Notes under the pieces: generated by a model
What the model saw: the letters and a program-made list of their open reading frames with translations, nothing else
Database searches by the model: none
Told to the model about the DNA's origin: nothing
Shown: positions 179 to 40,596 of the stretch, one piece after another
Numbering within the stretch: the stretch's first letter is position 1
How the letters are laid out: each line of letters begins with the position of its first letter
Virus record (IMG/VR): IMGVR_UViG_3300029305_002995
Span: 32,001-96,000 of that record
Source: a virus
Lineage: Duplodnaviria; Caudoviricetes
Strand: one strand, 5' to 3'
DNA length: 64,000 nt
Program-made: the position numbers and the translations under genes

Positions 179-200
179 ACTCATTTTTATTAAAAGCCAT
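179..200 (-). CDS. Exon 1 (MAFNKNE..) of an intron-split gene, probably major tail protein
   Basis: Strong AGGAGG RBS and ATG at 200. The frame stops inside the intron. It lies downstream of the neck genes. Confidence 0.6.
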
Positions 201-252
201 AATTGTTTCCTCCTTAAAAATAATAAAAACCCATGCTAATCAGCATAGGTTT

Positions 253-1122: not shown

Positions 1123-1124
1123 AC

Positions 1125-1619: not shown

Positions 1620-1620
1620 A

Positions 1621-2670: not shown

Positions 2671-2697
2671 CTACGACACTTCCTTTCTACAATTTTT

Positions 2698-3799: not shown

Positions 3800-3818
3800 A
3801 CTTATAGTAAATTACAGA

Positions 3819-4853: not shown

Positions 4854-4872
4854 AACTTTTACCTCCTATCTC

Positions 4873-5439: not shown

Positions 5440-5514
5440 GTTGTTTTCCTCCTTAAAAAATCACATAAAAAAAGACCGCCTAAAGCAGTCAATGTAGTAT
5501 TTAAAATTTATCTT

Positions 5515-7086: not shown

Positions 7087-7088
7087 CC

Positions 7089-8648: not shown

Positions 8649-8674
8649 TTTTCATCCTCACCCCCTATCTGTTC

Positions 8675-18854: not shown

Positions 18855-19703
18855 TCATTTAATTTTTCTAATCTTATTATTAACTTCATCCAAATAATAC
18901 TCATGTCCACTTGCCAATAGATATTGTCCTTCACGTTTATAAGTATTTGCGAACACTGTATAATCAGTGCGGTATTTGTCTTGATATTTAATCCTTGGTA
19001 AAGTTTTATAGTAAATTAAATTTAATTCTACCAAAGCATCAATAGCCAAATTAAGTGTCCTTTTAGTAATATTAAGCTTTTCAGCAATATCTTTTAAAAA
19101 ACCACAATATGCTTCTGGATTATTTTGTTTTCGTTTATCGATTGCATATTCTAAATTATGTGTGTTATCTACATTTAGCTCTTGTACAGTCAACAAATTC
19201 CTTCTTTTGAAGATTGACATTCTTAAATAAGCAAACACAAGCAAAATAGCTTCTGTATTATTAAAATCAGAATATTGTCCATAATCTAAAATACGTTGAA
19301 CTTCATCTATGTAAATCAAAGCAAATCTTGAAGCACATTCATCCATTAACTTTTTAGAATCTATTGAGACTTCAAAACAATAAGCATTAGAATCCAAACC
19401 AGAATCATCATAGGTCAAGAAATCATAAAACTGTTTATAATAAATAAAGAGATTTCTAATATTGTTGTTAATTCCCTTTGCACATCTGTTTGGAACATGA
19501 CCTAACCACTTCACAATAAAGTCAATATTACATAATACTTTTTCATTTCTACCCAGATAACACAATAAAAAAGTCAGTAATCCAATTCGTTTTTCAGACA
19601 TTCTACCATCTAAAATAATAGATTCTGGAATCGCAAAATAGAAATTTTGATTTTTTTCTAATTTTTTTGGATTCAAATATTCAAATTTTTTATTTTCAGT
19701 CAT
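18855..19703 (-). CDS. Winged-HTH DNA-binding protein (replication initiator-like or regulator)
   Basis: C-terminal LKDIAEKLNITKRTLNLAIDALVELNLI HTH. Confidence 0.55.
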   Translation of the reverse strand: MTENKKFEYLNPKKLEKNQNFYFAIPESIILDGRMSEKRIGLLTFLLCYLGRNEKVLCNIDFIVKWLGHVPNRCAKGINNNIRNLFIYYKQFYDFLTYDDSGLDSNAYCFEVSIDSKKLMDECASRFALIYIDEVQRILDYGQYSDFNNTEAILLVFAYLRMSIFKRRNLLTVQELNVDNTHNLEYAIDKRKQNNPEAYCGFLKDIAEKLNITKRTLNLAIDALVELNLIYYKTLPRIKYQDKYRTDYTVFANTYKREGQYLLASGHEYYLDEVNNKIRKIK

Positions 19704-19764
19704 ATCCTATTCCCTTATTTTTACAATTCACTATTTTCAGCAGCTAATTTTTCAAAATTCAAAT

Positions 19765-19898
19765 TCAAAAATATACAGTTAACGTACACGATTGGCATTT
19801 ATAGGGGTAGAAAAATCAAATCGTGTACAAAATCCGTATCGTTTTTTAACTTCTATATATAATATATAATAGAAATATATATAAAATACTTAAAGCAC
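19765..19898 (-). repeat. Left copy of a ~133-bp inverted repeat (partner at 35211-35342)
   Basis: Reverse complement aligns with 35211-35342; internal GTACACGATT/AATCGTGTAC palindrome and TA-rich tract. Confidence 0.85.
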
Positions 19899-21218
19899 AC
19901 TTTTTTTCACTACCTGCTGAAAAGTACAAATTCTATAAGCTATCTCATACGTTATTTTCATGCTAAAACACTTTATACGAATTATCTTTTTATGTAAATA
20001 TCTCTTTGATACTGAATAACTTTATTTTAAATTAATATTTTCTGAAATATTAGCTTTAGAAAAATATTATTTTCTTGGGATTAAGTCATACCTGCACTAT
20101 CTTTTGTCTTTATATGGTGTTTTAGATTTATTTGCGTTTTAGCTTATAACCTTATTATCCTACTATTAGTTTTAAATAGTAAGGTTTTGTTCAATAATGA
20201 CTTATACCTTTACTATCTATGCAATATATTACCATATTTTTATTAGTTTGTCAATAGGCTAAGATAATAAAGTTATAAGTTATTTTCTTGTTTATTTTGG
20301 TATGGATTTTAGATTTTTATAGTTCGATTTTAATTTTGGTGATTTTGTTTATTTTGCACAAATATGGCTTTTAGTTGGACATTATTTGAAATTTGATTTA
20401 TTTGTGTTTGATTTTATAGTTCATCACATTTTTTATATGGTTTTAGGGTGTTTTATCACATTTTTCTAATATATATTTTATTGTTACATTTTTTGTACTT
20501 TTTTATTTTCATTTAGTTTTTTCTGGCTGTTTTTAAAAATGGTAATCCATTGTCAAAATTGATTGAAATTTTTGGGAATTGTAAATTTTAAGATAAATTT
20601 TTCTGGTTCTTTTCTAATACTGCAAGCGTATGTTCTGAATTACTAAAAATTAGATTTTAGTAAAAAAACAGGGTGGGTTCATTTTTAGGTTTTTCATGGG
20701 TGAGCAATAGCTCGTATAGTATGATATTGGCTGTAAAATAGAGGTATATGCGGATATATATGAGGGTGATTTTTAAAAAATTTGAATATGGGGTGGTATG
20801 GGAATTAGGTGAAATAAGAGTAAATTAAAGGTTTGGATTTGGACTATTTAAAGGTTGGTTGGTATAAATTTAAGATAGATTTAAGGTAAGTTTATAGGAT
20901 AGTTGTAGGGTGATTTTGGGTTAGATTTGGGGTGGATTTGTGTGTTAAAAAGGTTGTATATAGGGTTATTTATAGGGCGATTGTAGGATGAATGTAGAAT
21001 AAAACTATGACAAAATTAAGTAAGAAATTAATACAAGAATTACTGGTTTATTTTAGGGGTATGTATAGGTGTGTATGTGGTATGGGTTTTAGGATGTGTG
21101 ATTAGATAGACCAGACAAGACTTCGGCTCGTGGCACTTTCGTGTGTTAAAGTGTAAATACGCCCTACCTGCTCCGTTCATATTCCAATTTGAAAAAGCCT
21201 CAAAAAATCAAATTGAAA

Positions 21219-21232
21219 AGAACATACGTTCT
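21219..21232. promoter_or_regulatory. Gram-positive SOS (LexA/DinR) box
   Basis: AGAAC-ATAC-GTTCT. Confidence 0.6.
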
Positions 21233-21752
21233 TAGAAGATTTTTCGATTGTTAAAGCTATATCAATATTGTTAAATGATTATCAATTAACCTCCCGCTAT
21301 TGGACTGAACCTTAGTTTATCAGCTAAACACAAAAAGGAGAAAAATCAAGCGTGTAAAGGTATCTTACTTTACACCGAAAAATCCAACGTAAAGTTTACT
21401 TTACATTTTCAAATATACTAATACAGTATACTTTCTCCCAAAAATCACTTTTTCTCCCTCTCAAAAAACCTCTCAAAAAACCTCCTAAAAAACCGCATAA
21501 CTAAGCGAAAAAACAATATTTTTCCATTTTCAAAAACGCTTAAAAAAAGCCTAAAAATATATGTTTTCTTCTTATATCCCTTATATCCCTTTTTTTCTTC
21601 CTATATCCTCTTCCCTTCTTCCTAATCACATTTCATTATAATTCTATCGTATTCCATTTACTTATATTTTTCCTTCTCCCTCCCTCCTATCCTCCCTTTT
21701 TGTACAAATTGCACAAAATTTCAAAAATCATAAAAAATTGCTCAAAACTCTA

Positions 21753-21781
21753 TTTACATACTGCAATCATTATGTTACAAT
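21753..21781 (+). promoter_or_regulatory. SigA-type promoter of the first early cassette
   Basis: TTTACA-17-TACAAT with extended TG. Similar TTGACW-17-TATAMT/TATTAT promoters start at 23720, 24579, 25475, 26601, 27157, 27787, 28288, 28808, 29671, 30214, 31705, 35420, 35842, 37662. Confidence 0.75.
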
Positions 21782-21868
21782 AAAATCGTACCAAACAGGT
21801 ACAAACAACAAACATTAAGCAAGTAAACAAAACAACAAACAACACAAATCAAAAAGGAGTACAAAACT

Positions 21869-22762
21869 ATGATGAACACTAACACTACTAACATCAATTC
21901 CATCCTCAACACCAACAAATCCAAAAAGCATGCTTGCGGTCATTGTCAGTGTTGCAACAAAGTCACTGACTTCCTCGCACTTCCAATGAAAGACCGTGGC
22001 GGCAGAAACGCATATCTTTGTGAAGAGTGCACTTCTAAAGTCTTTGACTATTGCGACGAAAACAGCTCTATCTACGGCGTTGAAAAAGTCCATCCATACA
22101 CTTTCAGCATTGAGCTTGAAGTATCAGCACACACCGACACGGCAAGCCTTGAACTTTCCCACATTGATTACTTGCCAACTTCTGACTGCACTGTTGAATG
22201 TGAATTCAAAAGCCCAATTTACAACGGTTTTAACGCTCTTTCCAAACACGCCACCCAAACTATCGCCATGTTATTAGATGACAATGAAATTGAAATGGAC
22301 TGGACTTGTGGAACTCATTTCAACGTTGGCGTAAACGGTAAAATCAATGAATACAGTATAGCATACATCGCAAGATACTATCGTGATTTGTTTATTCCAT
22401 TAAGCAACGCCATGAAAGAGCATCCAATTACTACTGAGCGCATCTATGGCAGAAACTTCTCGACATGGGCTGAACCTTGCAACGCATATACTTATCCTTA
22501 TGAACATTGCAACTTTATTAATATTCAGCATACTACCCACATCGAGCATAGACTCTGCAAGTATGTTACTGGCGAACAATACGCTGAATGTATGAGATAC
22601 TGTCGCAAGCTTACCGAGATTATCATCAACAACTTTGTTGACTACCTTACCGTAGAAATCAAAGATACTAACAGATACCCAGACCGTGAAAGTTATCTGA
22701 AACATAAAGCAGAAGTAACTGCAAAAAAACTTGTAAACGAGTTTTTAAAAAGAGCGAGATAG
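21869..22762 (+). CDS. Putative amidoligase (COOH-NH2 ligase family)
   Basis: SIELE, SDCT..EFKSP, TCGTHFN and IEHR motifs. Confidence 0.75.
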   Translation: MMNTNTTNINSILNTNKSKKHACGHCQCCNKVTDFLALPMKDRGGRNAYLCEECTSKVFDYCDENSSIYGVEKVHPYTFSIELEVSAHTDTASLELSHIDYLPTSDCTVECEFKSPIYNGFNALSKHATQTIAMLLDDNEIEMDWTCGTHFNVGVNGKINEYSIAYIARYYRDLFIPLSNAMKEHPITTERIYGRNFSTWAEPCNAYTYPYEHCNFINIQHTTHIEHRLCKYVTGEQYAECMRYCRKLTEIIINNFVDYLTVEIKDTNRYPDRESYLKHKAEVTAKKLVNEFLKRAR

Positions 22763-22911
22763 TAAGGTTATAAGTTAAAAGGGCGAGAGTAAAATCTCGC
22801 CCGATACCTAAAACAAACATTTTCAAAAATAATCAAAAATTACACAAATTTTCAAAAACATCTTAAAATTTTATCAACTTTCAAAAATCACAAAAAAAAG
22901 GAGATAATACC

Positions 22912-23241
22912 ATGAAAAAAATGACTTTGACTGCATCTGATATGAAAAAAATCCTTCTTAAAAAATTAGCAGATGAAAACACATATTTCACTGAATCTGA
23001 TATTCTCTTTTATCAAACTTCGCCGCAACGATATAAAATTATCATTAAAGACTATGAACATATTGTTTTTATCCTTAATATATTTAATGATGAAGAAGAT
23101 GACGCAGAACTCATTGCAGTATGGCGAAAAGATAAAGACCGCACAAATAAAAATTTGATTATCTTAGAAGAACATCACGAAAACAAAGTTATAGAATCTG
23201 TGTTGAAACAACTTGGATATTATATCGGTACACGCTTTTAA
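22912..23241 (+). CDS. Hypothetical early protein
   Basis: AGGAG RBS; followed by a GAGTC hairpin terminator. Confidence 0.7.
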   Translation: MKKMTLTASDMKKILLKKLADENTYFTESDILFYQTSPQRYKIIIKDYEHIVFILNIFNDEEDDAELIAVWRKDKDRTNKNLIILEEHHENKVIESVLKQLGYYIGTRF

Positions 23242-23804
23242 TAGTTTTATAGAGAGTCTGGAAACAGACTCTTTTTTTTATGCTTTTTTCTTTACACAAA
23301 AAAGCTGCATTTTCAAAAACGTTAAGTTTTTGTATTTTTAATGTTTTCAAAAATAGTTGTTTTTGATACTATTTTCAAAAACGCTCAAATATTGTATTGT
23401 TAAAAAATTATCACTTTATCCGAAAATCATAATATAATTACTTAAAAAATCCAAACTGTTACAAAACGACCCTACAATACGATACAATCAATTTTAATCC
23501 TTTTAACCTATAACAATATACACTATACCGCAAAAATGCCTTACAGAAGCTCTCAGACGCTACAAATCAATTTTAATATAATAAGAAAATAAACAGTTAA
23601 ACAAAACAGAAAAATTCTAAACTTGCAACTAACTTACAACTAACTTGCATTTTCAAAAACTAAATTTTATTGCAGAAAATTTTAGAAAATAAATAATCAA
23701 AGAAAATTCAAAAAAACACTTGACAAAACAAATTCAATAAGCTATAATCTAATCAAACAAGAACATAAACAAAACGACAAACAACAAAACAGGAGGAAAC
23801 AAAA

Positions 23805-24086
23805 ATGAAGAAAAACATAATAAAATATACTTGCATTAACTGCAAATATTTTAATGCGTGCGGAGACGAAGAACGCACAGAACCATGCAAAGGAAAAATC
23901 CCCGCAATAATAAAGTACAAACACCACGCAGAACCAGAAACAATAAAAGAATTAAACCTCGAAGCAGTTTACAGAAACAACTCTTTCGCCTATCGTGGAA
24001 TGAGTTATGAAGAATTTGTAAAACTGGAACTTACCAAAATTCAGAAAGATTTAGAAAATGGCGTTTTGCTTTGGTATGAAGCATAA
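23805..24086 (+). CDS. Hypothetical early protein (Cys cluster)
   Basis: Own promoter and AGGAGG RBS. Confidence 0.7.
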   Translation: MKKNIIKYTCINCKYFNACGDEERTEPCKGKIPAIIKYKHHAEPETIKELNLEAVYRNNSFAYRGMSYEEFVKLELTKIQKDLENGVLLWYEA

Positions 24087-24108
24087 ACAACTAACAGGAG
24101 GAAAAACC

Positions 24109-24222
24109 ATGAAGCAGAAAATCAGAAATTTCGTAAACTATATTCTTGTAGAATCCGCTTTTGTAGCTGTCAGCTTGTCAATGATTTTTGTTCTTTTGGA
24201 AAGAACTTGTGCAAGATATTAA
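24109..24222 (+). CDS. 37-aa hydrophobic peptide (not in ORF track)
   Basis: AGGAGG RBS; MKQKIRNFVNYILVESAFVAVSLSMIFVLLERTCARY. Confidence 0.6.
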   Translation: MKQKIRNFVNYILVESAFVAVSLSMIFVLLERTCARY

Positions 24223-24254
24223 AAGAAAGTAAAGTTATAATTTATATATAATTA

Positions 24255-24282
24255 AGGGAGTCGAAAGACTCCCTTTCTTTTA
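24255..24282 (+). terminator. GGGAGTC-GAAA-GACTCCC intrinsic terminator (repeated family)
   Basis: Related hairpins near 23253, 25144, 26427, 27010, 27639 (inverted), 28595, 29570, 31508 (inverted). Confidence 0.8.
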
Positions 24283-24652
24283 TACCCTACACAGAAAAAT
24301 TGTATTTTCAAAAACACTTGATTTTTGATACTATTTTCAAAAACGTTAAGTTTTTGTATTTGTATATTTTTAGATATGGAATTTTTCTGCTTAAACCTTA
24401 AATTTCAAATTTACAACAAAATTGAATTTTTGAAAACTGGAACAACTTGTATCTGGAATTATCTGAACATCTGGAACAATTTTTGACGATATTCAAAAAT
24501 ATTAAATTTTTGATGACGTTTTCAAAAACACTAATCTATTGCAGAAAATAATTATTTTAATAAAATTTAATTCACCTATTGACATAATGCAATCATTACA
24601 CTATAATATAATTAAAGACAAAACAAACAACGACCCACAGGAGGAAAAACAA

Positions 24653-24904
24653 ATGGAGAAAATAAACCTTGCTCATGTAGTAGAAAAATTCTTAATGGAG
24701 AAAAAATGCCACTTTGATGATATTTATCAAGGCTTTGCAGATTGCCTTGTATGTATTAAAATTACTGGTGACTGGAAGCATGACCATTTAAGAACTAAAA
24801 TCTTACTCGAAGAAAACTTTAATGTACTTTTACATAAAGAAGATGCAGAACCATCTGAAGAAGATTTTTATACCGCAGTGCATACTTTTATGATTAAAGA
24901 TTGA
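24653..24904 (+). CDS. Hypothetical early protein (start corrected to MEKINL)
   Basis: The promoter lies inside the longer ORF call; AGGAGG RBS precedes 24653. Confidence 0.7.
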   Translation: MEKINLAHVVEKFLMEKKCHFDDIYQGFADCLVCIKITGDWKHDHLRTKILLEENFNVLLHKEDAEPSEEDFYTAVHTFMIKD

Positions 24905-24915
24905 GAGGAAGAATA

Positions 24916-25134
24916 ATGATGTTTCCATATAAAAATTACAAAGTGGAATTTTCCTATTATTCCGAAACCAAAAAGAAAAGAATAACGGAGTCAGAATATT
25001 ACGGATGCGAATACAGCGCGCAAAATGCTGTCAATCGTTGTAGAGTTGACTATCAAAATTATAAAGATTTAAGGATTGAATCAGTTTATTTTGAAAATTA
25101 TACTGCATGGGAATTTACAGATGCTTGGGAATAA
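24916..25134 (+). CDS. Hypothetical early protein
   Basis: GAGG RBS; terminator follows. Confidence 0.65.
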   Translation: MMFPYKNYKVEFSYYSETKKKRITESEYYGCEYSAQNAVNRCRVDYQNYKDLRIESVYFENYTAWEFTDAWE

Positions 25135-25557
25135 ATAAAAATCAGAGAGTCAGAAATGACTCTCTTTTTTATTGCGATTTTACTTTTACAACTAACCAGC
25201 GTTTTCAAAAATTCAAAGAAATTGTAATAATCAAGATAAAACAAATTAAGTCAATTTTTGAAAACACAATACTTTTGTGCGGCTTGTTTCTGTATATATT
25301 TGTTTTTGAACATGGAATTTTTTTATTTTATTACAATTTAACTTAATTTTCAAAAATACTACTTTCCTGTCAACAGCTGTATGATAATAATATGACAACA
25401 AAAAATCAACATTTCTAAAAACATTTTTCTTTTGTCTAAGAAAATAAATATAAAAATAAATTTTCAATAACTACTTGACATAATAATATTATTATGTTAT
25501 AATCAAATCAGAAAATAAACAACACAACAAACAATATAAAACAAAGGAGTTAAAACT

Positions 25558-26415
25558 ATGACAAAAGAAAAATTCAATATCTATGAAGAAATTACAAACA
25601 GAATTATTAAACAGCTTGAAGCAGGAACTATTCCATGGCACAAACCATGGTCTGGAGTAGCTACTGGAGCATTTAACAGAGTTTCCAAAAAACCTTATAG
25701 CCTGTTGAATCAAATGCTTTTACAGCACGAGGGAGAATATGCTACTTTCAAACAGTGGAGCGCACTTGGCGGCAAAATCAAAAAAGGCGAAAAATCCGAA
25801 ATTGTTGTTTTCTGGAAAATCCTTGAATCTGAAAAAGTAAATGATAAAGGCGAAAAGGAGAAACAGATTATTCCTATGCTTAGATATTATAGCGTTTTTC
25901 ATATCTCACAAATTGAAGGCGTAGAACCTATCTCAAAACCACAGGTACAGCACGAACCAATTAAAGAAGGCGAAGAAATTAAAAACAATTATAAAGCAAG
26001 AGAAAATTTGACTATTAACGAAATCGTGACAAATAGAGCCTTTTACAACCCATCTGGTGACTATATCGAAGTACCATGCAAAGAGCAGTATTCAGATATT
26101 GCAGAATTTTACAGCACATTATTCCATGAGATGACTCACAGCACAGGACACAAAGACAGGTTAAACAGATTAGATAAAACCGCACGCTTTGGGAATAATG
26201 AATATAGTAAAGAGGAACTTGTAGCTGAAATCGGAGCTTGTAGCTTAATCAATATGATTGGCTTGGAATCTCCAAAAACTTTTAATAATAGTGCTTCATA
26301 TATCCAGAGTTGGCTCAAAGTATTGAAAGATGATAGTAAATTCATTGTATCTGCAAGTAGTAAAGCAGAAAAAGCGGTTAAATATATCTTAGGTGAACAG
26401 CTTGTAACAGAATAA
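25558..26415 (+). CDS. ardC: ArdC-like ssDNA-binding antirestriction protein with zincin-like domain
   Basis: IPWHKPW, Y..LN, ATFKQW, KKGEK, HEMTHSTGH, YSKEELVAE, YIQSW motifs. Confidence 0.9.
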   Translation: MTKEKFNIYEEITNRIIKQLEAGTIPWHKPWSGVATGAFNRVSKKPYSLLNQMLLQHEGEYATFKQWSALGGKIKKGEKSEIVVFWKILESEKVNDKGEKEKQIIPMLRYYSVFHISQIEGVEPISKPQVQHEPIKEGEEIKNNYKARENLTINEIVTNRAFYNPSGDYIEVPCKEQYSDIAEFYSTLFHEMTHSTGHKDRLNRLDKTARFGNNEYSKEELVAEIGACSLINMIGLESPKTFNNSASYIQSWLKVLKDDSKFIVSASSKAEKAVKYILGEQLVTE

Positions 26416-26668
26416 AAAAATATACTGAGGACTCGAAAGAGTCCTCTTTTTTTGCTATTACACAAAATCAGTATTTTTAGAAACGATGATTTTTTGCATT
26501 TTTTCTTATCACAAGAAAAGTCAATTTTTGAAAATCCTATCAAATTGCAATATACCATTTTTTGAGAAAATAATTATTTTAATAACTCTTATATTTTGTA
26601 TTGACTCTTGAAAAACATAGTGCTATAATATAGTTAAGGATAAAAAATAAATTATAGGAGGTTTATTT

Positions 26669-26995
26669 ATGAATAACGAGCAGAAAATTATGAGTATACT
26701 TGATTTAATTATGGAACGCCTTGATAAAATAGAAAGTAGATTTGATAATCTGGAAAATAGATTTGATAGATTTGAAATTGACGTAAACAAGCGTTTTAAT
26801 GACCTTGAGTCTAACATGGACAAACAATTTGCAGAGGTTAAACGATGTTTAGCAGATGTCGCAGAAGGAATCAACGCTACTATTTTACATTCAGCACAAG
26901 ATACACAAGTATTAAATAAACGAATTGACGAAATAGAAAAAATTGCAATTATCGCATTAAAAGAAGCAAGCCTCGCAAAATATAGGAATATCTAA
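26669..26995 (+). CDS. Coiled-coil heptad-repeat protein
   Basis: RLDKIESRFDNLENRFDRFE repeats; own promoter and terminator. Confidence 0.7.
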   Translation: MNNEQKIMSILDLIMERLDKIESRFDNLENRFDRFEIDVNKRFNDLESNMDKQFAEVKRCLADVAEGINATILHSAQDTQVLNKRIDEIEKIAIIALKEASLAKYRNI

Positions 26996-27241
26996 AATAC
27001 ACATTAAAAAGAGTCTGGAAACAGGCTCTTTTTTTATACGCTTTTTATCTTTACAAGTTATTAAGATTTTTGAAAATGGAATTTTTTCGCTTTCAAAAAT
27101 AGAATGTATTCAAAAACATCTGGAAAATAAATATTAAAATAAATTGGATTTTACTATTGACATACTACAATAGTTATGTTATTATATACTCAAACAAGGA
27201 CATAAACAAAACGACAAACAACAAAATAGGAGGAAAACAAA

Positions 27242-27631
27242 ATGAAAATCAATGTAATGACTCTTACCAATGGCGAACTTAAAAAAATTGAAATCGAAAA
27301 CAATTTATCCAGTTTACAGAATCTCGTAGGCGGTTATATTGAAATCCCTTGCTTGTCTGAAAGATTGACCGCTCAAAAAATTATCACCATTATCAATGAA
27401 GAAGGAAAATTTTTAGATTTGACTCCCGAAATTGCTTGTGTTTATGATGGTAAACTCCATGATATAGTTTTTGGTACGGTTATCTTTGCAAGTACAGACT
27501 ATGAAGGAAATACACTGGGACTTAATACAGAACAGATGGAATATATCAAAAATGAACTTAGAAATGATGCTATTGTTCATTTAAGAAACAGAAATAAAAC
27601 GTATATGCTGAAAGTATTACAGTTTGAATAA
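27242..27631 (+). CDS. DUF3846-like protein
   Basis: LQNLVGGYIE, NEEGK and G.V motifs. Confidence 0.75.
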   Translation: MKINVMTLTNGELKKIEIENNLSSLQNLVGGYIEIPCLSERLTAQKIITIINEEGKFLDLTPEIACVYDGKLHDIVFGTVIFASTDYEGNTLGLNTEQMEYIKNELRNDAIVHLRNRNKTYMLKVLQFE

Positions 27632-27820
27632 AAAAATTAGGGAGTCTTTCGACTCCCTTTTTTTATTTACAATTTTACAGATTATTTGTATTTTTGAAAA
27701 CAGAAACTTTTTGCTTTTATTTTAATTAATATCAAAATAATAGTATTTTTGAAAATAGACATAATTTGTAAATTTCCCTCACCTGCTTGACAACGTGACT
27801 TTTAGTTGATATAATTAAAA

Positions 27821-27950
27821 TACAAAGACAGCATTTAATTCCTTTTGATTTGTGCTAATGTTGTTTGTTGTTGTTATTTTCTTCAAATTAAAAGCTATTT
27901 CTTTTCCTGTTGTCTTTGTATTTGGCGGTGCTTACGGCATCGCCTTTTTT
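27821..27950 (+). ncRNA. Candidate trans-acting antisense sRNA occupying its own cassette
   Basis: TTGACA-17-TATAAT promoter (27787-27815), no ORF. Stem 27821-27833/27908-27920 closes a U-rich loop complementary to early-gene leaders. GC-rich terminator at 27924-27950. Confidence 0.75.
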
Positions 27951-28379
27951 ATTACAATGTTTTACAAGCCGTCTAAAAGCCTTTATAAAGCGTTTTAATA
28001 CACGTATAGTAACTTAATCAATAAATAATACAAAATAGATTTTAGACATATTACAGAAGCGGAAAAATGATTTTAGACTATATGATATATTCAAATATGA
28101 TAATTAGAATAAAATCCAACTTCAATCAGATTAAAACAAGATAGCAGCGTTTTTGAAAAAGCAAAGAATTTGTATTTTAACAAAAACAAAAAACTTGAAT
28201 TTTTGAAAACACTATTTTATTGCAAATAAGATTAGATAATTAGATGATAAGCAAAGAAATGAATTTTAATTTATTTGATAAAACTACTTGACATATTGCA
28301 TTTAATATGCTATAATGTAGATGGTAGATAAGCTACTAACAACAAACAAAACATAAAAGCACAAAAGGAGAAATGAATT

Positions 28380-28583
28380 ATGAAAATCAATGTAGGTTAC
28401 AAAAAGAATGAATGGTTAGCTGTATATGTTACTGCTGATGGCGAAAGAGAATTTGCAATTTGCAATACATATGAAGAAGCGGAAAAAGAAATTAACCGTT
28501 TAAGAAATTGTGGTATTTGTATTATTGGAACTATGACAACAAGATTTTATAATCATTATGTAGAGGAAATTATTGATAAATAA
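28380..28583 (+). CDS. Hypothetical early protein
   Basis: Complete promoter-leader-gene-terminator cassette. Confidence 0.7.
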   Translation: MKINVGYKKNEWLAVYVTADGEREFAICNTYEEAEKEINRLRNCGICIIGTMTTRFYNHYVEEIIDK

Positions 28584-28895
28584 CAAATCAAATCAAGGGA
28601 GTCGAAAGACTCCCTTTCTTATTTGCGCTACTGGACAATTTATTAGTATTTTTGAAAACGTCACTTCCCTGCTCTAATTTCAGAATAGCAATAAAATTCC
28701 GTTTTTAACAATACAATTTTTTTGCTTGGAACAAAATAATATAATATTTGAAAACACTTTTCTTTTGTCTAAGATAGTAAATATAAAAATAATTTTTATA
28801 AAACTACTTGACATACTTTAATTATTATGCTATACTCTAATCATAGAAAATAAACACACAAACAAACCACAAATCAATTAAAAGGAGAAGAAATT

Positions 28896-29564
28896 ATGAT
28901 TAGTAGTGAAAAGATTCTTGAAATGCTGAATAATGGCAACTATGAAGAACTAAAAGAACTTTGTAAACGTGATATGGTGTCTAAAAGCTTAAAAGCAAAT
29001 GGCGGCACAAATGCAAACAAACAGCTTAAAGCGTTTGAAAAATTTTTGAAACTATCACAGAAACAGCCCAAAGAATTAGAACGTATCGTTCATTTTGATA
29101 TGGTAAAAGGCGACGAAGCAAAAGCATTGTGCAAAGAAGGTCTTTCCGCTTTGTTTATTATTCCTTCTTGTCCATTTTATAAAAATATCGAGAGTGTTCC
29201 AATGACTGGACAGGCAAAGCTCGGTAGTATTGCAGATTCAATGAATACAAAATTTGATTTTACTATTGAAAATGCAGTTATTGATTTTGCTATGAAATAC
29301 GCAAAAACAAATACTGCGGACAAACGTTTTAGAAACTTATATCTTCCAAACGGTGCTTTGTTCGACATTGAACTTATCAAAGAAGTTGTAAACGTTCTCG
29401 GAGATTGTGAAGTGTATGGAGTTGATAACGGAAACAGAACTTTAATTAGTCCAATCCTTTTACAATCTAATAATGGATATGCTCTTGTTTGTCCTCGAAA
29501 AAATACAGAGCAGGACAAAGAAAAATGTAAAACCTATGATGATTATAAAAACATGATGGAATAA
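28896..29564 (+). CDS. Hypothetical early protein
   Basis: Complete cassette. Confidence 0.75.
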   Translation: MISSEKILEMLNNGNYEELKELCKRDMVSKSLKANGGTNANKQLKAFEKFLKLSQKQPKELERIVHFDMVKGDEAKALCKEGLSALFIIPSCPFYKNIESVPMTGQAKLGSIADSMNTKFDFTIENAVIDFAMKYAKTNTADKRFRNLYLPNGALFDIELIKEVVNVLGDCEVYGVDNGNRTLISPILLQSNNGYALVCPRKNTEQDKEKCKTYDDYKNMME

Positions 29565-29772
29565 AAAGTGGGAGTCTGGTAACAGACTCCCTTATTTAAC
29601 ATTAAACAAAATATTAGTGTTTTCAAAAACATTAAGAAAATAATAATTTCGATAAAACAGTAAAAAATATTTGACAAACTGGAAAAATTATGTTATAATA
29701 CAAATGCAATAAGGAAGTAAACACAACAACAAACTATACTTATTGCAAAATACGAAAGGAGGTACTTGCTTT

Positions 29773-29946
29773 ATGGTTAAAATCGTGCAAAAACAAGATG
29801 GTTATTATATCCTCGAAGCACAAATTGATGGCTTAACTATCGTTAAAGGCTTGATGGATGCAGACAAACCATTAGAAAAAATTGCAAAAGAACCTAAAGC
29901 AGATGGATTTTATTTACATATTCCAGACGAAATAATTTGTAAATAA
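29773..29946 (+). CDS. Small hypothetical protein (start corrected to MVKIV)
   Basis: AAAGGAGG RBS. Confidence 0.6.
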   Translation: MVKIVQKQDGYYILEAQIDGLTIVKGLMDADKPLEKIAKEPKADGFYLHIPDEIICK

Positions 29947-30292
29947 ATGAAGTCGGAGGGAATTTATTCTGACTGCCAATACATAATAAATTCCCTCTTG
30001 TACCTTATTCAATCAATGATGTGTAATACAATATGTAAATGCAATTCACGGAATAAATTATAAATAGAACCTTATTTTTTAGAAGAAAATAAAATAGAAG
30101 AAGAAAAGCGAAAAGGATTGATTTTCAAATATCAGTCCTTTTTGTTTTGTACAAAAATATCATGTTTTTGAAAATACATATAATATTATTTAGTAAATAT
30201 ATACACAAACTACTTGACAACATGATTTCAGTATGTTATAATACAGTCAAGAAAATAAACACAAATGCAAACAACATGAAAGGATTGATATT

Positions 30293-30775
30293 ATGTTATA
30301 CTGTGCTTATGGTAGTAATATGAACTTGGAACAAATGGCTTATAGATGCCCTAACTCAAAAATTGTAGGGACTGGACAAATTAAAAATTATCAGTTAGTA
30401 TTTAATATGTGTGCAGATATTATTAAAAGCGACAATGCGGAAAATTTTGTTCCAGTTGTTCTCTGGGAAATCGCAGAAGAAGATTGGGAAAGATTGGATA
30501 TTTACGAAGGTTATCCACATTTCTATACAAAAGAAGTTGTTACAGTATCTTGCGGAAAAAACAATGTAGAAGCTATCGTATATGTTATGATAGACGATAA
30601 CAAAGGTATTGAGCCGCCTATGTATGATTACTTTATGGGTATTTTAGCAGGATATACGGAAAATAATATCAACACAAAACCGCTGTATGATGCTTTGAAA
30701 CATTCACAAGAACATAAAACAGTACATTCTAAATATGTATATGGAAGATTATCTAAGAAACTTAATAGACGATAA
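30293..30775 (+). CDS. Gamma-glutamylcyclotransferase (AIG2-like)
   Basis: YCAYGSNMN..QM..RCP and LDIYEGYP motifs. Confidence 0.88.
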   Translation: MLYCAYGSNMNLEQMAYRCPNSKIVGTGQIKNYQLVFNMCADIIKSDNAENFVPVVLWEIAEEDWERLDIYEGYPHFYTKEVVTVSCGKNNVEAIVYVMIDDNKGIEPPMYDYFMGILAGYTENNINTKPLYDALKHSQEHKTVHSKYVYGRLSKKLNRR

Positions 30776-30789
30776 ATATATATATTTTA

Positions 30790-31062
30790 ATGGAGGAAAA
30801 TAATATGAAAAAATGGTGTCTTATTGACGAAGCAAGAAATATTATGGATTTATTTGTATACGACAACAAAGATTTAGCTATTGCCGATGCAGAGAATTTA
30901 TGGAGTCGTTTGACAAATTCTGATAAAATGCAAAGAACAATGTTTCTTGTAGGTTTATGTAATGTAGAACAAAACGAAGATGGTAAATGGGATTTTGCAG
31001 AAAATAAATATGGGCTTATTGATTGTGATATTTATGAAGTAGCAAAAAATTTTATAGAATAA
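30790..31062 (+). CDS. Hypothetical protein
   Basis: ORF in operon with GGCT. Confidence 0.6.
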   Translation: MEENNMKKWCLIDEARNIMDLFVYDNKDLAIADAENLWSRLTNSDKMQRTMFLVGLCNVEQNEDGKWDFAENKYGLIDCDIYEVAKNFIE

Positions 31063-31091
31063 ATATATTTTGTAATACAAAGGATGATGCG

Positions 31092-31484
31092 ATGAAAAAG
31101 AAAACAATGCAGACATATAAAAATTATGTTTGCCCTAAATGCTTTAATATTCTGACTCAATGTAATTGTGATAAGTTGTCTGATAAACTCATTTATATCG
31201 ATGTAGGTATTCAAGAGCATATTAAAATCCTAAATGCCAAAGGTTATAAAACGCTATTTTGTTGCGAGTCTCATTATGAAAGAAATGATTTGCAATTATA
31301 TATTTCCTTTGCCTATCAGCATTATCATTTAGGCGAACTACCGCATGGTTTTAAACGTTCTGCAGATGGAAGGAATATAGAATATATCTTTAATTCAAAG
31401 CTATCCAGAGACGCTTACAGCCAATGTAAAAACGATGTATTAAAAGAACTATTAGAATGGTGCAAAGCCTTGCCGAATTTATAA
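31092..31484 (+). CDS. Hypothetical protein (LNAKGYKTLFCCESH motif)
   Basis: ORF followed by a GAGTC terminator. Confidence 0.6.
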   Translation: MKKKTMQTYKNYVCPKCFNILTQCNCDKLSDKLIYIDVGIQEHIKILNAKGYKTLFCCESHYERNDLQLYISFAYQHYHLGELPHGFKRSADGRNIEYIFNSKLSRDAYSQCKNDVLKELLEWCKALPNL

Positions 31485-31792
31485 TAAAAACATTAAAGAG
31501 GATTAAAAGGGAGTCTTTCGACTCTCTTTTTTTATTTACAATAAAATAGCATTTTTGAAAACAAATATTTATTGTTATTCCCTACTCTGACAAAATATAA
31601 TTATTTTTGAAAATATAATTAAGCTGCCATAACAGAAAAATCTTATATTTGAAAATGCTAAGAAAATAAATATTAAAATAATCAATTTTTTCTTTCAAAA
31701 ATCCTTGACATAATGAATGTATTGTGTTATACTATAATCAAACAAAGGAAATAAATAAAACAACAAACAATGTATCAAAAGGAGAATGAATT

Positions 31793-32407
31793 ATGATTAC
31801 ACTGAATCAGCTTAATTGTTCCAGATGTTATCGTTTTGTAGATAACAATTTGAAATCTTATAAAGTGGAATGTATTCGCTTTTATAAAGAAAATAAGGTT
31901 GTAATTCAAGTTGATAATGGTTGGTTGACTGTTAGAAAACAGGGATGGACAGTTGATTTGAAATCTCTTGACCTTCCTATTTCTGAAATCAAAGCTAAAA
32001 GAAAAGAAAAACTGGATGGCAATGAAGTTTTCTATATGAGCCTTGGGACTGAAAAATACGGTTCTGAAAAGATTTGTGTACTTTATATTCCTGCTGATAT
32101 GTTAGGAATTAAATTTGCAGAATATAAAAAACAGTCTGATTATGTACAGGCTATCTATACAGGCGAACAGGGAATCTATATTGAAAAATTTGTAGGTACT
32201 TTGAATTGTAAATTGCGATTTCTTAGAGAAGAATATGCAAGATATTATAAAAAAGTTGACGAATATGCTTTGATGGTTACTAAAGAAGAAGTTTTCGATG
32301 AATTTTTCAATAAATTGGTAGAACTTAAAGAAGCTATCAAAGCAGAACAAAAACGTGTTTACAATTTAACTGTTGAAGAAGCAGTAAAAGAAATGAAAGA
32401 GGTGTAA
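31793..32407 (+). CDS. Hypothetical early protein
   Basis: Promoter, leader and RBS. Confidence 0.7.
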   Translation: MITLNQLNCSRCYRFVDNNLKSYKVECIRFYKENKVVIQVDNGWLTVRKQGWTVDLKSLDLPISEIKAKRKEKLDGNEVFYMSLGTEKYGSEKICVLYIPADMLGIKFAEYKKQSDYVQAIYTGEQGIYIEKFVGTLNCKLRFLREEYARYYKKVDEYALMVTKEEVFDEFFNKLVELKEAIKAEQKRVYNLTVEEAVKEMKEV

Positions 32408-32410
32408 TGT

Positions 32411-32743
32411 ATGACAGATAAAGTATATAAAACTGCTTGTACTTTCGGTTTTGACGAAGAACTGGAAAGGCTTGAAAAAGATTTGTTATCTGTTAAATAT
32501 GTTCAAAGTGTAGATTTTGACATTGATGGTTTTTACGACAATATCAATTATATTATCACTATTTTCAAGTATGCAATTCCAGTGACTTTGAAAAATTATT
32601 TTGAAGTTAGACGCACAATGTTAAAAGAAGTGCTTGTGATTATGGGAAAACATGGTTTGTCAAAAACTGGTGATGCTATCGAAGATTACGGAGAGCATTA
32701 TTATATTGTACGCAGTTATAATCCAGACAATAATGCAGAATAA
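32411..32743 (+). CDS. Hypothetical protein
   Basis: GAGGTG RBS, closely coupled to the upstream gene. Confidence 0.65.
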   Translation: MTDKVYKTACTFGFDEELERLEKDLLSVKYVQSVDFDIDGFYDNINYIITIFKYAIPVTLKNYFEVRRTMLKEVLVIMGKHGLSKTGDAIEDYGEHYYIVRSYNPDNNAE

Positions 32744-32756
32744 GGAGTGAAATATA

Positions 32757-33191
32757 ATGACATATATTTCTATGTTGCATGGTGGCACTGATAGTCAGTA
32801 TCACAGAAGCCCTATTATTATCCATGATGGAATGTGGTATTGTGCAGAATTTCAGACTGTTGAGCAGTTGGATTTCTTTGCTAAAACTTTAGGTTTTACC
32901 TATGAATTAACCGAAGAAGAAAAATGGATGAATACTAAAAAAGTATATCAAAAATACAGAATGAGCCATGATATTAAAACGGCAGATAAACGCTTTTGGA
33001 CTTTTGAAGATTTGCCAGATGGAGTAAAACCTATTAAAGCATTATCTAATAGACATATCGTTACTTGCTATTATATCAATACTGGCGATTGTATTGTGAT
33101 TTACAGACCGAATCCAAACGCTAAAGAAGTTTATAAACCATTAAGCCTCACAGAACATATTAACCATCAAAAGATTTACGGTAGCTATTAA
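32757..33191 (+). CDS. Hypothetical protein
   Basis: AGGAG RBS. Confidence 0.65.
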   Translation: MTYISMLHGGTDSQYHRSPIIIHDGMWYCAEFQTVEQLDFFAKTLGFTYELTEEEKWMNTKKVYQKYRMSHDIKTADKRFWTFEDLPDGVKPIKALSNRHIVTCYYINTGDCIVIYRPNPNAKEVYKPLSLTEHINHQKIYGSY

Positions 33192-33205
33192 GGAGAATAA
33201 TTACA

Positions 33206-33331
33206 ATGAAAAGAAAATATATGTATCTTTTAGAAAGAATTAGGGATTGTTCTGATTGGGAAAAAGGCATGAGAATTTGGGCAGATTCTCCTTGTACTGG
33301 ATGGAGAATTGTTAAAAAAATTAGAGTATAA
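33206..33331 (+). CDS. 41-aa hypothetical protein (not in ORF track)
   Basis: AGGAG RBS; fills the gap in the operon. Confidence 0.55.
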   Translation: MKRKYMYLLERIRDCSDWEKGMRIWADSPCTGWRIVKKIRV

Positions 33332-33354
33332 AAGAATTATTTTAAGCGGAGGAC

Positions 33355-33879
33355 TTGAGTATGTGTAATTTTGATGAAGTAATTGCAAAGAGCATTGAAT
33401 TGCATAATGCAATCAATAAGCTTAATGATGAATCTAAGGTTCTCAATTCTATTATCGCAGAGAAGAGAGAAGCAAAGAAGCAAGACATTATGAATGACTT
33501 GCAGAGGTATATCGATATTATGACAAAGCTTGATATTAAGGTTGTTGAGTTTAAGACCAATAGTTTTATGTACTACAATGAAATGAATCGCAGACTTGGC
33601 ATTAAGATTCGCAGATGGAGTCAAGGTGTTCAAATTGATTTGGGTTGTTGTTCTACTGTCATGAACGGTTTTTATACATTCCACTCTATTGGTCATGTAG
33701 CTGCTGGACTTAGACATGAAGATATTATGAATGGTTTTTGTGAAAAGTGGGATGACATTAAGAAAGGCATGGACACTTTCTTTGCTAAAGAAATTGAAAA
33801 GATTTTGGAAGATAGAAAAGCAAAGGCAATTAAAGAAAGAGAATGTGCTATTAGCAAATTGACCTCAATTAGCAGATAA
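33355..33879 (+). CDS. Hypothetical protein
   Basis: GGAGG RBS. Confidence 0.65.
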   Translation: MSMCNFDEVIAKSIELHNAINKLNDESKVLNSIIAEKREAKKQDIMNDLQRYIDIMTKLDIKVVEFKTNSFMYYNEMNRRLGIKIRRWSQGVQIDLGCCSTVMNGFYTFHSIGHVAAGLRHEDIMNGFCEKWDDIKKGMDTFFAKEIEKILEDRKAKAIKERECAISKLTSISR

Positions 33880-33894
33880 GTGGAGGATTGAAAC

Positions 33895-34065
33895 ATGTTT
33901 GAAACTAAGAAAGATATATATAACGAACTGACAAAGCTTTTGACAGACTATGAGAATCCTATGGATGTAGAAGATTATGATGATATTGATTGGGAAGCAG
34001 AACTTTATGAAATGTTGGTAAAGATTCAAAACAGATGGGAAGATACCATCACGGCAGACATTTAA
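33895..34065 (+). CDS. 56-aa acidic protein (not in ORF track)
   Basis: GGAGG RBS; MFETKKDIYNEL...DVEDYDDIDWEAELYE. Confidence 0.6.
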   Translation: MFETKKDIYNELTKLLTDYENPMDVEDYDDIDWEAELYEMLVKIQNRWEDTITADI

Positions 34066-34094
34066 AAATGTAATTTTAAACGGAGGATTTAATT

Positions 34095-34289
34095 ATGAGT
34101 GAAACAGTAAGAATTTGGCTTGAAGAACTTTATAAAAATGAGATTGAAGAAATCAAAGGAACTATTGAAAACGAGCATATTTGGGAACTTGGATATGATG
34201 GAGAAGAGCCGAATCCGCATACAGAAAATATCGAAGTGCTGAAAGAATATATCGAAGTGCTTGAAGAGAAGTTGGCTGAACTGAATTAA
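34095..34289 (+). CDS. 64-aa very acidic protein
   Basis: GGAGG RBS; Glu-rich. Confidence 0.65.
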   Translation: MSETVRIWLEELYKNEIEEIKGTIENEHIWELGYDGEEPNPHTENIEVLKEYIEVLEEKLAELN

Positions 34290-34317
34290 AAGGATAATTT
34301 TATAGGGAGGGGCAAAC

Positions 34318-34554
34318 ATGGAAAATAATGAAAGAATGTACTATGCAGGAGTCGATATGACAGATTGGGATTTTTCTTTTAAGGAAGATGACCCTAAATT
34401 TATCTACAAGGCATTTATGGCAGTATGCAACTTTGCGGAAGAATTTTCTGGTTGTGTCGGTTGCCCGTTGAGAGATAAATTGTGTTTCTCTAAGCACGGG
34501 CATATGTTTTGGGGTAAGGTTCATAGAGAATTGACAGATGTGAATCTAAGATAA
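34318..34554 (+). CDS. Small Cys-containing protein
   Basis: GGAGG RBS; CVGCPL motif. Confidence 0.6.
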   Translation: MENNERMYYAGVDMTDWDFSFKEDDPKFIYKAFMAVCNFAEEFSGCVGCPLRDKLCFSKHGHMFWGKVHRELTDVNLR

Positions 34555-34579
34555 AATGACGATTTTATAAGGAGATTTA

Positions 34580-34765
34580 GTGATTATGAAAAGGATTTTT
34601 CGTGATACAGAATCCAATGAACTAATTACAGAGCAGGAACTAAAAAATGAATTTCTATATTATTGTAAACATCTAAGTAACGACCCAAGAACTTTTGAAC
34701 AGTATATTAAAGACTGTACAAGTAAAAACGGATTTTTAGAGGAAGTTAAAAATACAACTAAATAA
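34580..34765 (+). CDS. Small hypothetical protein
   Basis: AGGAG RBS; terminator follows. Confidence 0.6.
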   Translation: MIMKRIFRDTESNELITEQELKNEFLYYCKHLSNDPRTFEQYIKDCTSKNGFLEEVKNTTK

Positions 34766-35210
34766 ACAAATTAAGGGAAGTAACATCAATTTTACTTCCC
34801 TTTTACTTCCCTATTTTTTATACAGAAAATTAACATTTTTGAAAACAATCATAATATTAAAATGGCTGCTTAAATACGAATTGTAAAATAATGTAAACGT
34901 ATATGAATTTTATTTAATCATCCCCAAACCGTCTATAAGCCATTTTAAGACAGTTTATAGATTCAATGACAGGTTATCTATCTAACCACCTAAAAATAGA
35001 AAATAGACCTATTACAGAAGCGGATATAAGCAAATATACATATTAGATATATGGATATTGTTTGTAGGAATATTTATTTTCCAAAAAACTATCTGAAACA
35101 AAGTCTTTGTAAATAAATCAGATATTGCAGGTAAACTTAATTTTTGAAAACAGTTATTTCATGTAAATGCCATTCTTCCCCATCGTCAACTGGAAATTAA
35201 ATTTTTTATG

Positions 35211-35342
35211 GTGCTTTAAGTATTTTATATATCTCTTATTATTATATATATAGAAGTTAAAAAACGTTACAGATACTGTACACGATTGGGTATCTGACAG
35301 TTAAAAATAGCTATTTTGTGTACGTTATCTGTATATTTTTGA
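35211..35342 (+). repeat. Right copy of the ~133-bp inverted repeat (partner at 19765-19898)
   Basis: GTGCTTTAAGTATTTTATATAT...TAGAAGTTAAAAAACG...GTACACGATT...GTGTACGTTA..TGTATATTTTTGA shared. Confidence 0.85.
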
Positions 35343-35505
35343 TTTTTTGACTTTTTCGAAAATAGTTGTTTCACTGGAAGATATGGAAATAATTGTAATT
35401 AGTGGCATTTAGAATCAGTTTGACAAGCTGAAAATTATAGTTTATAATTAAAAAAAGAGAATTTTTTAAGCAAAACATAAAAATTTTCAAAAATGAGGTG
35501 TTTTT

Positions 35506-35778: not shown

Positions 35779-35919
35779 TTTGATTTTTGAAAAGAGTGGA
35801 AATTGTATTTCTGCTCTTTTATTTTTTTTGCTAAAATTTCCTTGACAAAGTATAATGATTGTGTTATACTGCATTTAGAAAGTAAATAAAACAATAAACG
35901 AGATTGAGGTGATAATAAA

Positions 35920-36630
35920 ATGAGAAATCAAACTGACTTAAACAAAGTCAAAGATATGGCTAATATATTCTCAAATATGGACGTTGTTGCTTCGGATTGT
36001 TCTTTTGTTGTACAGCATCCAATCTATGAATATCCCGTTGTGGCTGTGGGCTTTTCTGACTATGACAATGGGGTTCAGATAGTTAATATCTTAGAGAGCG
36101 AAGAAAACTTAAATAAAGCAAGGCAGGCTACACGAGAAACGATTGCTAAAGCAGAAGATATTTTTTCTGTTTATTTTGTTATTCGCAAATCTTATCGTAT
36201 GACCTTTTTAAAGTATATTCATAGTTATTTGTCTTTAGAAGATTTTAGCAAGTTGTTAAATTATGCTTGGATTTCTTCTGAGAATCCAAATACAGATGTT
36301 AATGTAAATATCCGTACTGTTTTATCATGGTTCAAAAAGGCTGATAAGAAACAGTTAATGAATGAAGAAGATTATGAAGTTTACAATAATCTTCCAGAAT
36401 ATGTAACATTATATCGTGGTGTAGGTATTAAATCCAAAAGAAAAGGATTATCTTGGACAGACGATATTGAGATTGCGAAATGGTTTGCAAATCGTTTTCA
36501 GTCTAATGGATATATTTTAACTGCTAAAGTGCATAAATCAAAAATTCTTGCATACTTTAGTGATAGAAACGAATCTGAATACATTGTTGATGTGTATAGT
36601 ATTGATGTAGAACGATTGGAGGTGGAATAA
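35920..36630 (+). CDS. Protein with ADP-ribosyltransferase-like C-terminal domain
   Basis: LYRG, LSWT and ESEYIV match the R-S-E ART pattern. Confidence 0.5.
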   Translation: MRNQTDLNKVKDMANIFSNMDVVASDCSFVVQHPIYEYPVVAVGFSDYDNGVQIVNILESEENLNKARQATRETIAKAEDIFSVYFVIRKSYRMTFLKYIHSYLSLEDFSKLLNYAWISSENPNTDVNVNIRTVLSWFKKADKKQLMNEEDYEVYNNLPEYVTLYRGVGIKSKRKGLSWTDDIEIAKWFANRFQSNGYILTAKVHKSKILAYFSDRNESEYIVDVYSIDVERLEVE

Positions 36631-37613: not shown

Positions 37614-37765
37614 TTGAACACACTAAGAAAATAAATATTTCAATAAATTTCAGAAAACCCCTTGACATAGCAAAATCATTATGCTATACTATAATCACAG
37701 GAAGAAAGTAAGTATTCCGATAAACAATAACAAACACAAAAGTAAATCAAAAGGAGAAATGAATT

Positions 37766-40513: not shown

Positions 40514-40596
40514 TTGACATACCACATTTATGATGTTATTATTTTCATGTGACACAAATTTTGCCATAGAAAACAATGTAGTAAAATAGAATAAAT

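Follow-up and report, generated by a model that had tools for sequence, protein, structure and literature searches.

A conserved phage RNA predicted to silence the early genes of an SPbeta-like gut phage as a class

We describe an RNA gene in an uncultured SPbeta-like gut phage whose product is likely a trans-acting, GcvB-like antisense RNA that lowers translation across the whole class of early cassette genes of the same phage. The gene lies at positions 27787–27952 of the analysed DNA, a stretch of 64,000 nucleotides (positions 32,001 to 96,000 of IMG/VR record IMGVR_UViG_3300029305_002995; hereafter the window), and is, judged by its sequence, a real, conserved non-coding RNA gene. This one RNA probably turns down the whole early gene set; its transcription and stability, pairing in vivo, the sign of its effect and its timing are what we infer. 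An earlier note on this DNA had proposed a multi-target antisense RNA directed against the shared leader of the early genes, which is now supported by conservation in five phages and by a target ranking led by early cassette leaders.

The phage and its early gene cassettes

The phage is represented by a 111-kb linear record that is about 81% complete. Its assignment as SPbeta-like is based on a YonO-like single-subunit polymerase (16736–18574; Pfam RdRP) and on the YonG and YonJ families carried by relatives. Related contigs from ruminant gut and faecal samples were binned mostly with Lachnospiraceae and other Clostridia, binning being no proof of host. Between 21.7 and 38 kb of the window, genes are arranged as cassettes of promoter, leader, gene and terminator, with near-consensus sigma-A promoters and A/C-rich leaders. 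The cassettes encode ArdC, DUF3846, GGACT and GmrSD-type proteins and a probable amidoligase, a cargo typical of early anti-host genes. The amidoligase label of the earlier note drew no match in Pfam, PHROG or PDB, but is backed by Amidoligase_2 clusters of the ESM Atlas (cosine 0.96, TM 0.67).

Several other features were observed in and around the array. Long inverted repeats (19765–19898 and 35211–35342) flank it, a tyrosine recombinase gene at 36632–37414 looks intact, and a second integrase-family gene lies beyond the window. The near-palindrome TTTT(C/G)AAAA occurs 29 times in 19700–35400 (15.7 kb) compared with nine times in the other 48 kb and is a possible protein-binding site; relatives carry a similar spacer word. 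A gene-free stretch of 1.7 kb (20000–21700) changes from G/T-rich to C/A-rich near 21150, as do corresponding stretches in L209, L210 and L217, and is a candidate origin or genome end. A hairpin-rich stretch (29947–30030) follows the 57-aa gene (29773) ahead of the next terminator.

The array varies between assemblies. In four of them (L030, L031, L032, and L034), a 5.4-kb deletion (window 21834–27212) fuses the first leader to the DUF3846 leader via a 10-nt overlap and takes out a run of cassettes that begins with the amidoligase-like gene, includes ArdC and ends with a 108-aa gene; the best-matching target stretch of the RNA is lost with them. The junction is undeleted in L033, L035, and L036. 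The leader repeats probably act as recombination points, and the RNA gene stays identical in the four deletion assemblies.

A structured RNA gene without a credible open reading frame

The unit consists of a consensus promoter, a structured RNA of about 130 nt and a terminator, with no credible gene (Table 1). Promoter (TTGACA-17 bp-TATAAT, 27787–27815) and terminator (hairpin 27924–27944, U-run to 27952) were confirmed as the earlier note had described them. Most cassette promoters have an A-tract, but the RNA promoter has none immediately 5' of its -35 element. Between 8 and 40 kb of the window it is the sole promoter with no SD-led open reading frame downstream. Further along, consensus promoters at 40514 and 41658 also have no obvious SD-led gene; the latter precedes a tRNA cluster. 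The description of the unit as ORF-less stands in that no credible gene is present, although a 48-codon GTG frame (27852–27998) exists, which lacks an SD, crosses the terminator and is unconserved. The unit has general features of trans-encoded base-pairing sRNAs, namely its own promoter, an intrinsic terminator and no conserved open reading frame. An Rfam scan of the RNA returned no family at gathering score and weak terminator-type matches alone at E<=10.

The predicted fold (z -6.1; matched by none of 200 shuffles) comprises a closing stem, an inner 11-bp stem (27841–27851 with 27885–27895), a 33-nt apical loop and the terminator. The closing stem, previously given as 13 bp, measures 16 bp in the DNA and about 13 bp if the transcript starts near 27821, the start expected from promoter spacing. 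An open loop of about 75 nt, as formerly drawn, is contradicted by the inner stem, which holds the anti-SD arm: opening this arm would cost 6.4 kcal/mol compared with 0.5–1.5 kcal/mol for the G/U loop (0.5 for 27861–27874). Each of the three stems contains one non-Watson-Crick pair, in every case a G.U on the plus strand, as selection acting on the plus-strand RNA would predict.

Table 1 Features of the RNA gene and its predicted targets (window coordinates; energies in kcal/mol)
Feature	Position	Strand	Remarks
Terminator of upstream DUF3846 cassette	27640–27665	+	insulates RNA gene
Sigma-A-type promoter	27787–27815	+	TTGACA-17 bp-TATAAT, perfect -35 and -10, extended -10 TG
Predicted small RNA, ~130 nt	27821–27952	+	5' end deduced from promoter spacing
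Closing stem P1, 5' arm	27818–27833	+	
Anti-SD arm	27839–27852	+	27841–27851 paired within inner stem P2
Apical G/U-rich loop, 33 nt	27852–27884	+	27859–27874 seed against ACA-rich leader repeat; 27874–27883 against 5'-end leader motif
Inner stem P2, 3' arm	27885–27895	+	one G.U pair; not seen in five homologs
Closing stem P1, 3' arm	27908–27923	+	one G.U pair
Intrinsic terminator, directly 3' of P1	27924–27952	+	hairpin 27924–27944, U-run to 27952
Predicted target: GmrSD/DUF262 gene leader	37697–37768	+	-21.8, rank 1; SD covered
Predicted target: ArdC-like gene leader	25510–25560	+	-21.7
Predicted target: amidoligase-like gene leader	21790–21871	+	-20.8; SD covered
Predicted target: GGACT/AIG2-like gene leader	30249–30295	+	-19.5
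Predicted target: 67-aa gene leader	28323–28382	+	-19.4; SD covered
Predicted target: DUF3846 gene leader	27192–27244	+	-19.3; not significant vs shuffles
Predicted target: 93-aa gene leader	23755–23807	+	-19.1; not significant vs shuffles
Predicted target: leader of 204-aa operon head	31740–31795	+	-17.8
Weaker predicted target: 236-aa gene leader	35877–35922	+	-16.4
Weaker predicted target: 222-aa gene leader	28843–28898	+	-15.5
Weaker predicted target: 83-aa gene leader	24614–24655	+	-14.3
Weaker predicted target: 57-aa gene leader	29706–29775	+	-13.8

Predicted pairing with early leaders

The complementarity that had first drawn attention to the unit was reproduced. Positions 27859–27872 are the exact reverse complement of 21831–21844 in the amidoligase leader, 27839–27852 pair with 21845–21859 with one bulged A and one terminal G.U, and the further loop matches at 37744, 31774, 25510 and 30250 are all present; the account of the amidoligase duplex needs correction in that six RNA bases (27853–27858) are looped out between the two paired segments. 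Read as its reverse complement, the RNA resembles a colinear leader from 5' end to ATG, which makes an origin from an inverted leader copy plausible.

Interaction energies were computed with an RNAup-like in-house script that includes opening costs, on sequence that is very A/U-rich. When 104 phage start regions were ranked by accessibility-corrected energy, the nine best-ranked regions were all promoter-proximal early leaders, as were 12 of the best 14 (early region versus rest, p=4e-6). An energy of -17 kcal/mol was reached by 8 of 13 promoter-proximal early leaders, but by none of the remaining 91 phage genes and by none of the 170 start regions taken from Lachnospiraceae, the best of which reached -15.9 kcal/mol (246 kb from two MAGs, possibly not the host). 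Against dinucleotide shuffles of the RNA core, the control that the earlier note had proposed, eight cassette leaders passed (p<=0.01), whereas significance was not reached by five others or by the non-cassette controls; the 26669 leader is not among the predicted targets. An unbiased scan of the 18.5-kb early region identified the RNA at 27787–27952 as the best anti-leader window (z 9.3). The proposed geometry, in which the SD itself is covered, holds for some targets (computed duplexes reach the SD at start regions 21869, 28380, 37766 and 28896), but most predicted duplexes lie on the ACA-rich stretch upstream, spanning about -48 to -20, 5' of the SD.

The window RNA is further matched to motifs of its own phage. 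It has 6.2 complementary 8-mers per own leader versus 0.1–4.0 with the leaders of relatives, and the elements of relatives have 0.1–3.1 per window-phage leader. The SD-proximal motif matched by the window RNA occurs in 4 of 13 own leaders and in none of 122 leaders of relatives, the 5'-end motif in 7 of 13 and 1 of 122, respectively, and the motif matched by the homologs in none of the 13 window-phage leaders, all of these private motifs having been chosen after inspection of the data. This own-phage preference was not seen among the five homologs.

Probable homologs in phages with ACA-rich leaders

Identical copies of the RNA are present in seven other assemblies, and exact-pattern and BLAST searches with the RNA recovered identical copies alone; a search of annotated phages gave no relative. 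Relatives were gathered via a winged-helix marker gene that adjoins the array, and their early strands were scanned for the window most complementary to their own leaders. This anti-leader scan revealed stand-alone units in L240, L246, and L258, and a pattern scan added L272 (identical in L274 and L294) and L282, both from phages of the marker set. All five units sit in cassette arrays with ACA-rich leaders and, like the window unit, no more than about 2.4 kb 3' of a gene homologous to DUF3846. Each combines a consensus promoter, a closing stem of 13–16 bp immediately followed by a terminator, an anti-SD arm and GUU repeats. Anti-SD arm and GUU repeats are thus present in six of six RNAs, from phages whose marker proteins are 33–64% identical to that of the window phage. 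Many other relatives yielded no element in the anti-leader or model scans.

The closing stems differ in sequence among the relatives, yet each beats shuffled controls at <=2/1000. Two-sided changes were counted in 12 of 22 pairs, five of them closing-stem pairs, in six sequences with an alignment fitted to the model and L303 left out; a plain MAFFT alignment misplaces the closing stem of the window RNA. The covariation that the earlier note had suggested looking for is hence seen as compensatory changes in the closing stems of five relatives. With a model built without the window, the unit is the best match in 64 kb (42.2 bits, E 5e-6). Two false matches to gene ends with terminators score 41 and 48.5 elsewhere, so that homology rests on synteny and architecture, on which grounds the five units are probable homologs of the window RNA. 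Model matches in L303, L305, and L306 were rejected as gene ends plus terminators. Matches of a degenerate pattern in metagenomes (L113, L132, L182, L136, and L142) are similar by construction, lack a cassette array and were not counted.

The anti-leader segments of the window RNA and of three homologs beat shuffles on their own leaders (z -5.8 to -6.9), and segments pair with the leaders of other ACA-leader phages about as well as with their own. In L240, L246, L258, L294, and L282, the RNA promoter directly follows the upstream stop codon with no intervening terminator, and the homolog RNA may therefore also form the 3' end of the upstream mRNA. Distant gut phages with ArdC and DUF262 contain other ORF-less promoter units (L025 at 9156 and 10891, L019 at 9153, L027 at 268, L028 at 10180, and L029 at 10137), which are purine-rich and unlike the window RNA.

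Anti-leader elements in phages with purine-rich leaders

A second group of relatives (L209, L210, L242, L247, L243, L254, L257, L260, and L248) has purine-rich leaders and few promoters; ACA density is 0.01–0.02 per nt in these leaders versus 0.05–0.08 in the ACA class. In these phages, the first transcript opens with a long 5' leader, within which a C/U-rich stretch scores best as anti-leader window (z 9–13); L209 has a 15-nt word in common with the window RNA at the anti-SD arm. Cross-pairing between the classes is block-diagonal: for C/U elements, values are -13.5 to -18.5 with purine leaders and -8.7 to -12.7 with leaders of the ACA class, and it is the latter that G/U elements prefer. The purine-class elements can also pair in cis with the leader of the first gene (P 0.5–0.76); they are thus not clean evidence for action in trans and may be attenuators.

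In a quick tree of the YonO polymerase, with partial rows for L240 and L254, the two leader classes are interleaved, with L209 and L210 as the closest neighbours of the window phage; this pattern suggests a block-wise exchange of early modules between phages. Because modules may swap whole, the match between element and leader is not countable as many independent events. Seed and targets may change together: matching is seen by class and specifically for the window RNA, though across few independent lineages and with possible exchange of modules. G.U-versus-A.C counts (53:32 in the ACA class, 151:118 overall) provide a weak test for selection at the RNA level.

The purine-class phages differ in other respects. 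Pistol and twister ribozymes lie between the early genes of L209, L242, L243, L248, L254, L257, and L260 (Rfam; minus strand, 1–10000), and these ribozyme-type relatives, to which L210 was assigned by eye only, appear to have one long early transcript instead of one promoter per gene. Hammerhead-like repeats between their early genes were likewise noted by eye, as were a twister-like motif right 3' of the purine-class element, which was not called by Rfam, and a boxA-like word (an rRNA-type antitermination signal) ahead of the early transcript, 5' of the anti-leader, in L209, L210, L242, L243, and L260 and at the first promoter of L240. No early-gene ribozymes were found in the window or L246.

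Proposed mechanism and alternative explanations

We propose that host sigma-A polymerase would transcribe the RNA from its own promoter and that the end-to-end stem, backed by covariation, together with the terminator would yield a stable RNA that accumulates. Its open G/U loop, by computed complementarity and accessibility, would seed on the unstructured ACA-rich leader repeat; at some targets (computed for 21869, 28380, 37766, and 28896), pairing would open the inner stem and spread over the SD. By analogy to GcvB, masking of the ACA enhancer, and sometimes of the SD, would block 30S entry and perhaps hasten mRNA decay (PMC3879156). Since the RNA and its targets are driven by one class of promoter, early anti-host proteins would be made in a short burst and their synthesis then shut down.

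The same pairing and repression could instead have its main job in a resident state (prophage or carrier), where the RNA would quiet leaky cassettes and block the early genes of superinfecting relatives. This explanation overlaps with ours in mechanism and differs in role. It draws on the two integrase-family genes of the phage, on distant relatives classed as proviruses, on phage antisense RNAs known in such roles (c4, sar, STnc6030), and on the ability of the segments to pair with leaders of other ACA-leader phages. However, a prophage state, repressor and attachment site are hypothetical for the window phage, and its RNA fits motifs private to the leaders of this very phage, which makes this explanation rather unlikely. 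Within the repression mechanism as such, we give timing during infection about two thirds of the weight and a role in the resident phage the remaining third. In Firmicutes, pairing by FasX, RoxS and VR-RNA protects or activates mRNAs, and a G/U loop that matches a motif at the extreme 5' end of several leaders, in duplexes that mostly end before the SD, might similarly shield early mRNAs from RNase J or direct a stabilising cut. We consider such an activating role improbable, as the anti-SD arm is kept in all six RNAs, the leaders are unstructured and therefore offer nothing to unmask, and masking of ACA repeats, which enhance translation, is repressive (PMC3879156).

It is still less probable that the unit is a non-functional inverted leader copy whose similarity is maintained by DNA recombination or gene conversion. 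Leader repeats do recombine, as the 5.4-kb deletion with its 10-nt leader overlap in four assemblies illustrates, the reverse complement is a colinear leader and the wobble test is weak; yet promoter, closing stem and terminator are retained with compensatory changes in six phages of such divergence, and each phage has a single copy, always in sense orientation behind a promoter. The loop is a low-complexity G/U repeat and a host-targeting phage sRNA exists (PreS), so the RNA might act as a decoy, capturing a host protein with affinity for G/U-rich single strands, or might target mainly host mRNAs. The failure of all 170 stand-in host start regions to reach -17 kcal/mol, with the caveat on their two MAGs given above, and a loop that follows the composition of the phage's own leaders across relatives render this very unlikely. 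That the unit serves as a small mRNA encoding a 48-aa hydrophobic peptide (27852–27998), or that its minus strand is the leader of a 10-codon peptide, is hardly credible. An open, hydrophobic GTG frame and a minus strand that finishes with an SD-like word plus ATG speak for such readings, but the GTG has no preceding SD, the frame runs across the terminator, has no Pfam match and is skipped by gene callers, no comparable frame exists in the five homologs, and the minus strand has no near-consensus promoter. A type I toxin-antitoxin antitoxin was rejected, as there is no overlapping minus-strand gene and the complementarity is spread over many leaders.

Comparison with known regulatory RNAs

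RsaE/RoxS, FsrA and LhrC of Firmicutes cover the generic SD of several targets with exposed C-rich loops. The window RNA resembles them in having a pyrimidine-rich segment that would cover the SDs of multiple targets, but this anti-SD arm pairs imperfectly, with a U facing G, and part of it is hidden; specificity would come from the upstream leader repeat. A closer likeness is to GcvB, a multi-target trans-acting RNA whose unstructured G/U-rich seed silences ACA translation enhancers (PMC3879156); such CA/ACA-rich enhancers lie in or near ribosome-binding sites, and the window RNA has both the low-cost G/U seed (27861–27874, 0.5 kcal/mol) and ACA-rich targets next to the ribosome-binding site. 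GcvB, however, is a host, Hfq-dependent regulator of amino-acid genes, whereas the window RNA is phage-encoded with its own early genes as predicted targets, and has in addition a closed-end stem and an anti-SD arm. The Rfam model of GcvB gave no match to it, either at gathering score or at E<=10.

Among phage RNAs, c4 (P1/P7), sar (P22), and OOP and aQ (lambda) likewise are phage-encoded, block translation of phage genes and steer development (PMC8198154, PMC12197685). Each of them acts on one operon (icd-ant, ant, cII and Q, respectively), mostly at the same locus, whereas about ten dispersed transcription units are predicted targets here. Identity with c4, which matures from the operon under its control, was rejected, as there is no Rfam c4 match, the unit is a stand-alone promoter-terminator unit, and its predicted targets are dispersed cassettes and not an icd-ant leader. 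PreS (lambda) and VpdS (Vibrio cholerae prophage) are also phage-encoded multi-target base-pairing sRNAs (10.1101/2024.10.31.621285), but PreS is Hfq-dependent and targets mainly host genes, whereas the best predicted targets of the window RNA are phage early leaders. Described phage antisense RNAs thus act on single operons or on host genes. In mainly openly accessible literature searched by text, as distinct from the sequences in large catalogues of unnamed viral RNA motifs (e.g., PMC10690425), we found no paper on an RNA directed against a whole early-leader class.

Biological significance

How phages shut off early genes that have very strong host-type promoters is only partly understood, and in Herelleviridae early genes continue to be transcribed late in infection (PMC10383478). 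If our proposal is true, a single RNA that silences the whole early class at translation would be a simple answer to early shut-off. We tentatively extend it to a possible whole-class switch run by SPbeta-like gut phages, with a leader "address" and one RNA that is rewritten when the address changes. This design, held equally tentatively, might span two widely differing layouts, one with a promoter per gene and a stand-alone RNA, and one with a long transcript cut by self-cleaving ribozymes and the anti-leader in its 5' piece. If such a switch is true, RNA-based immunity against relatives that share the address is also conceivable, and the antisense RNA and its targets, if they act as we propose, would offer a compact pair of leader and anti-leader with which to control genes in gut Clostridia.
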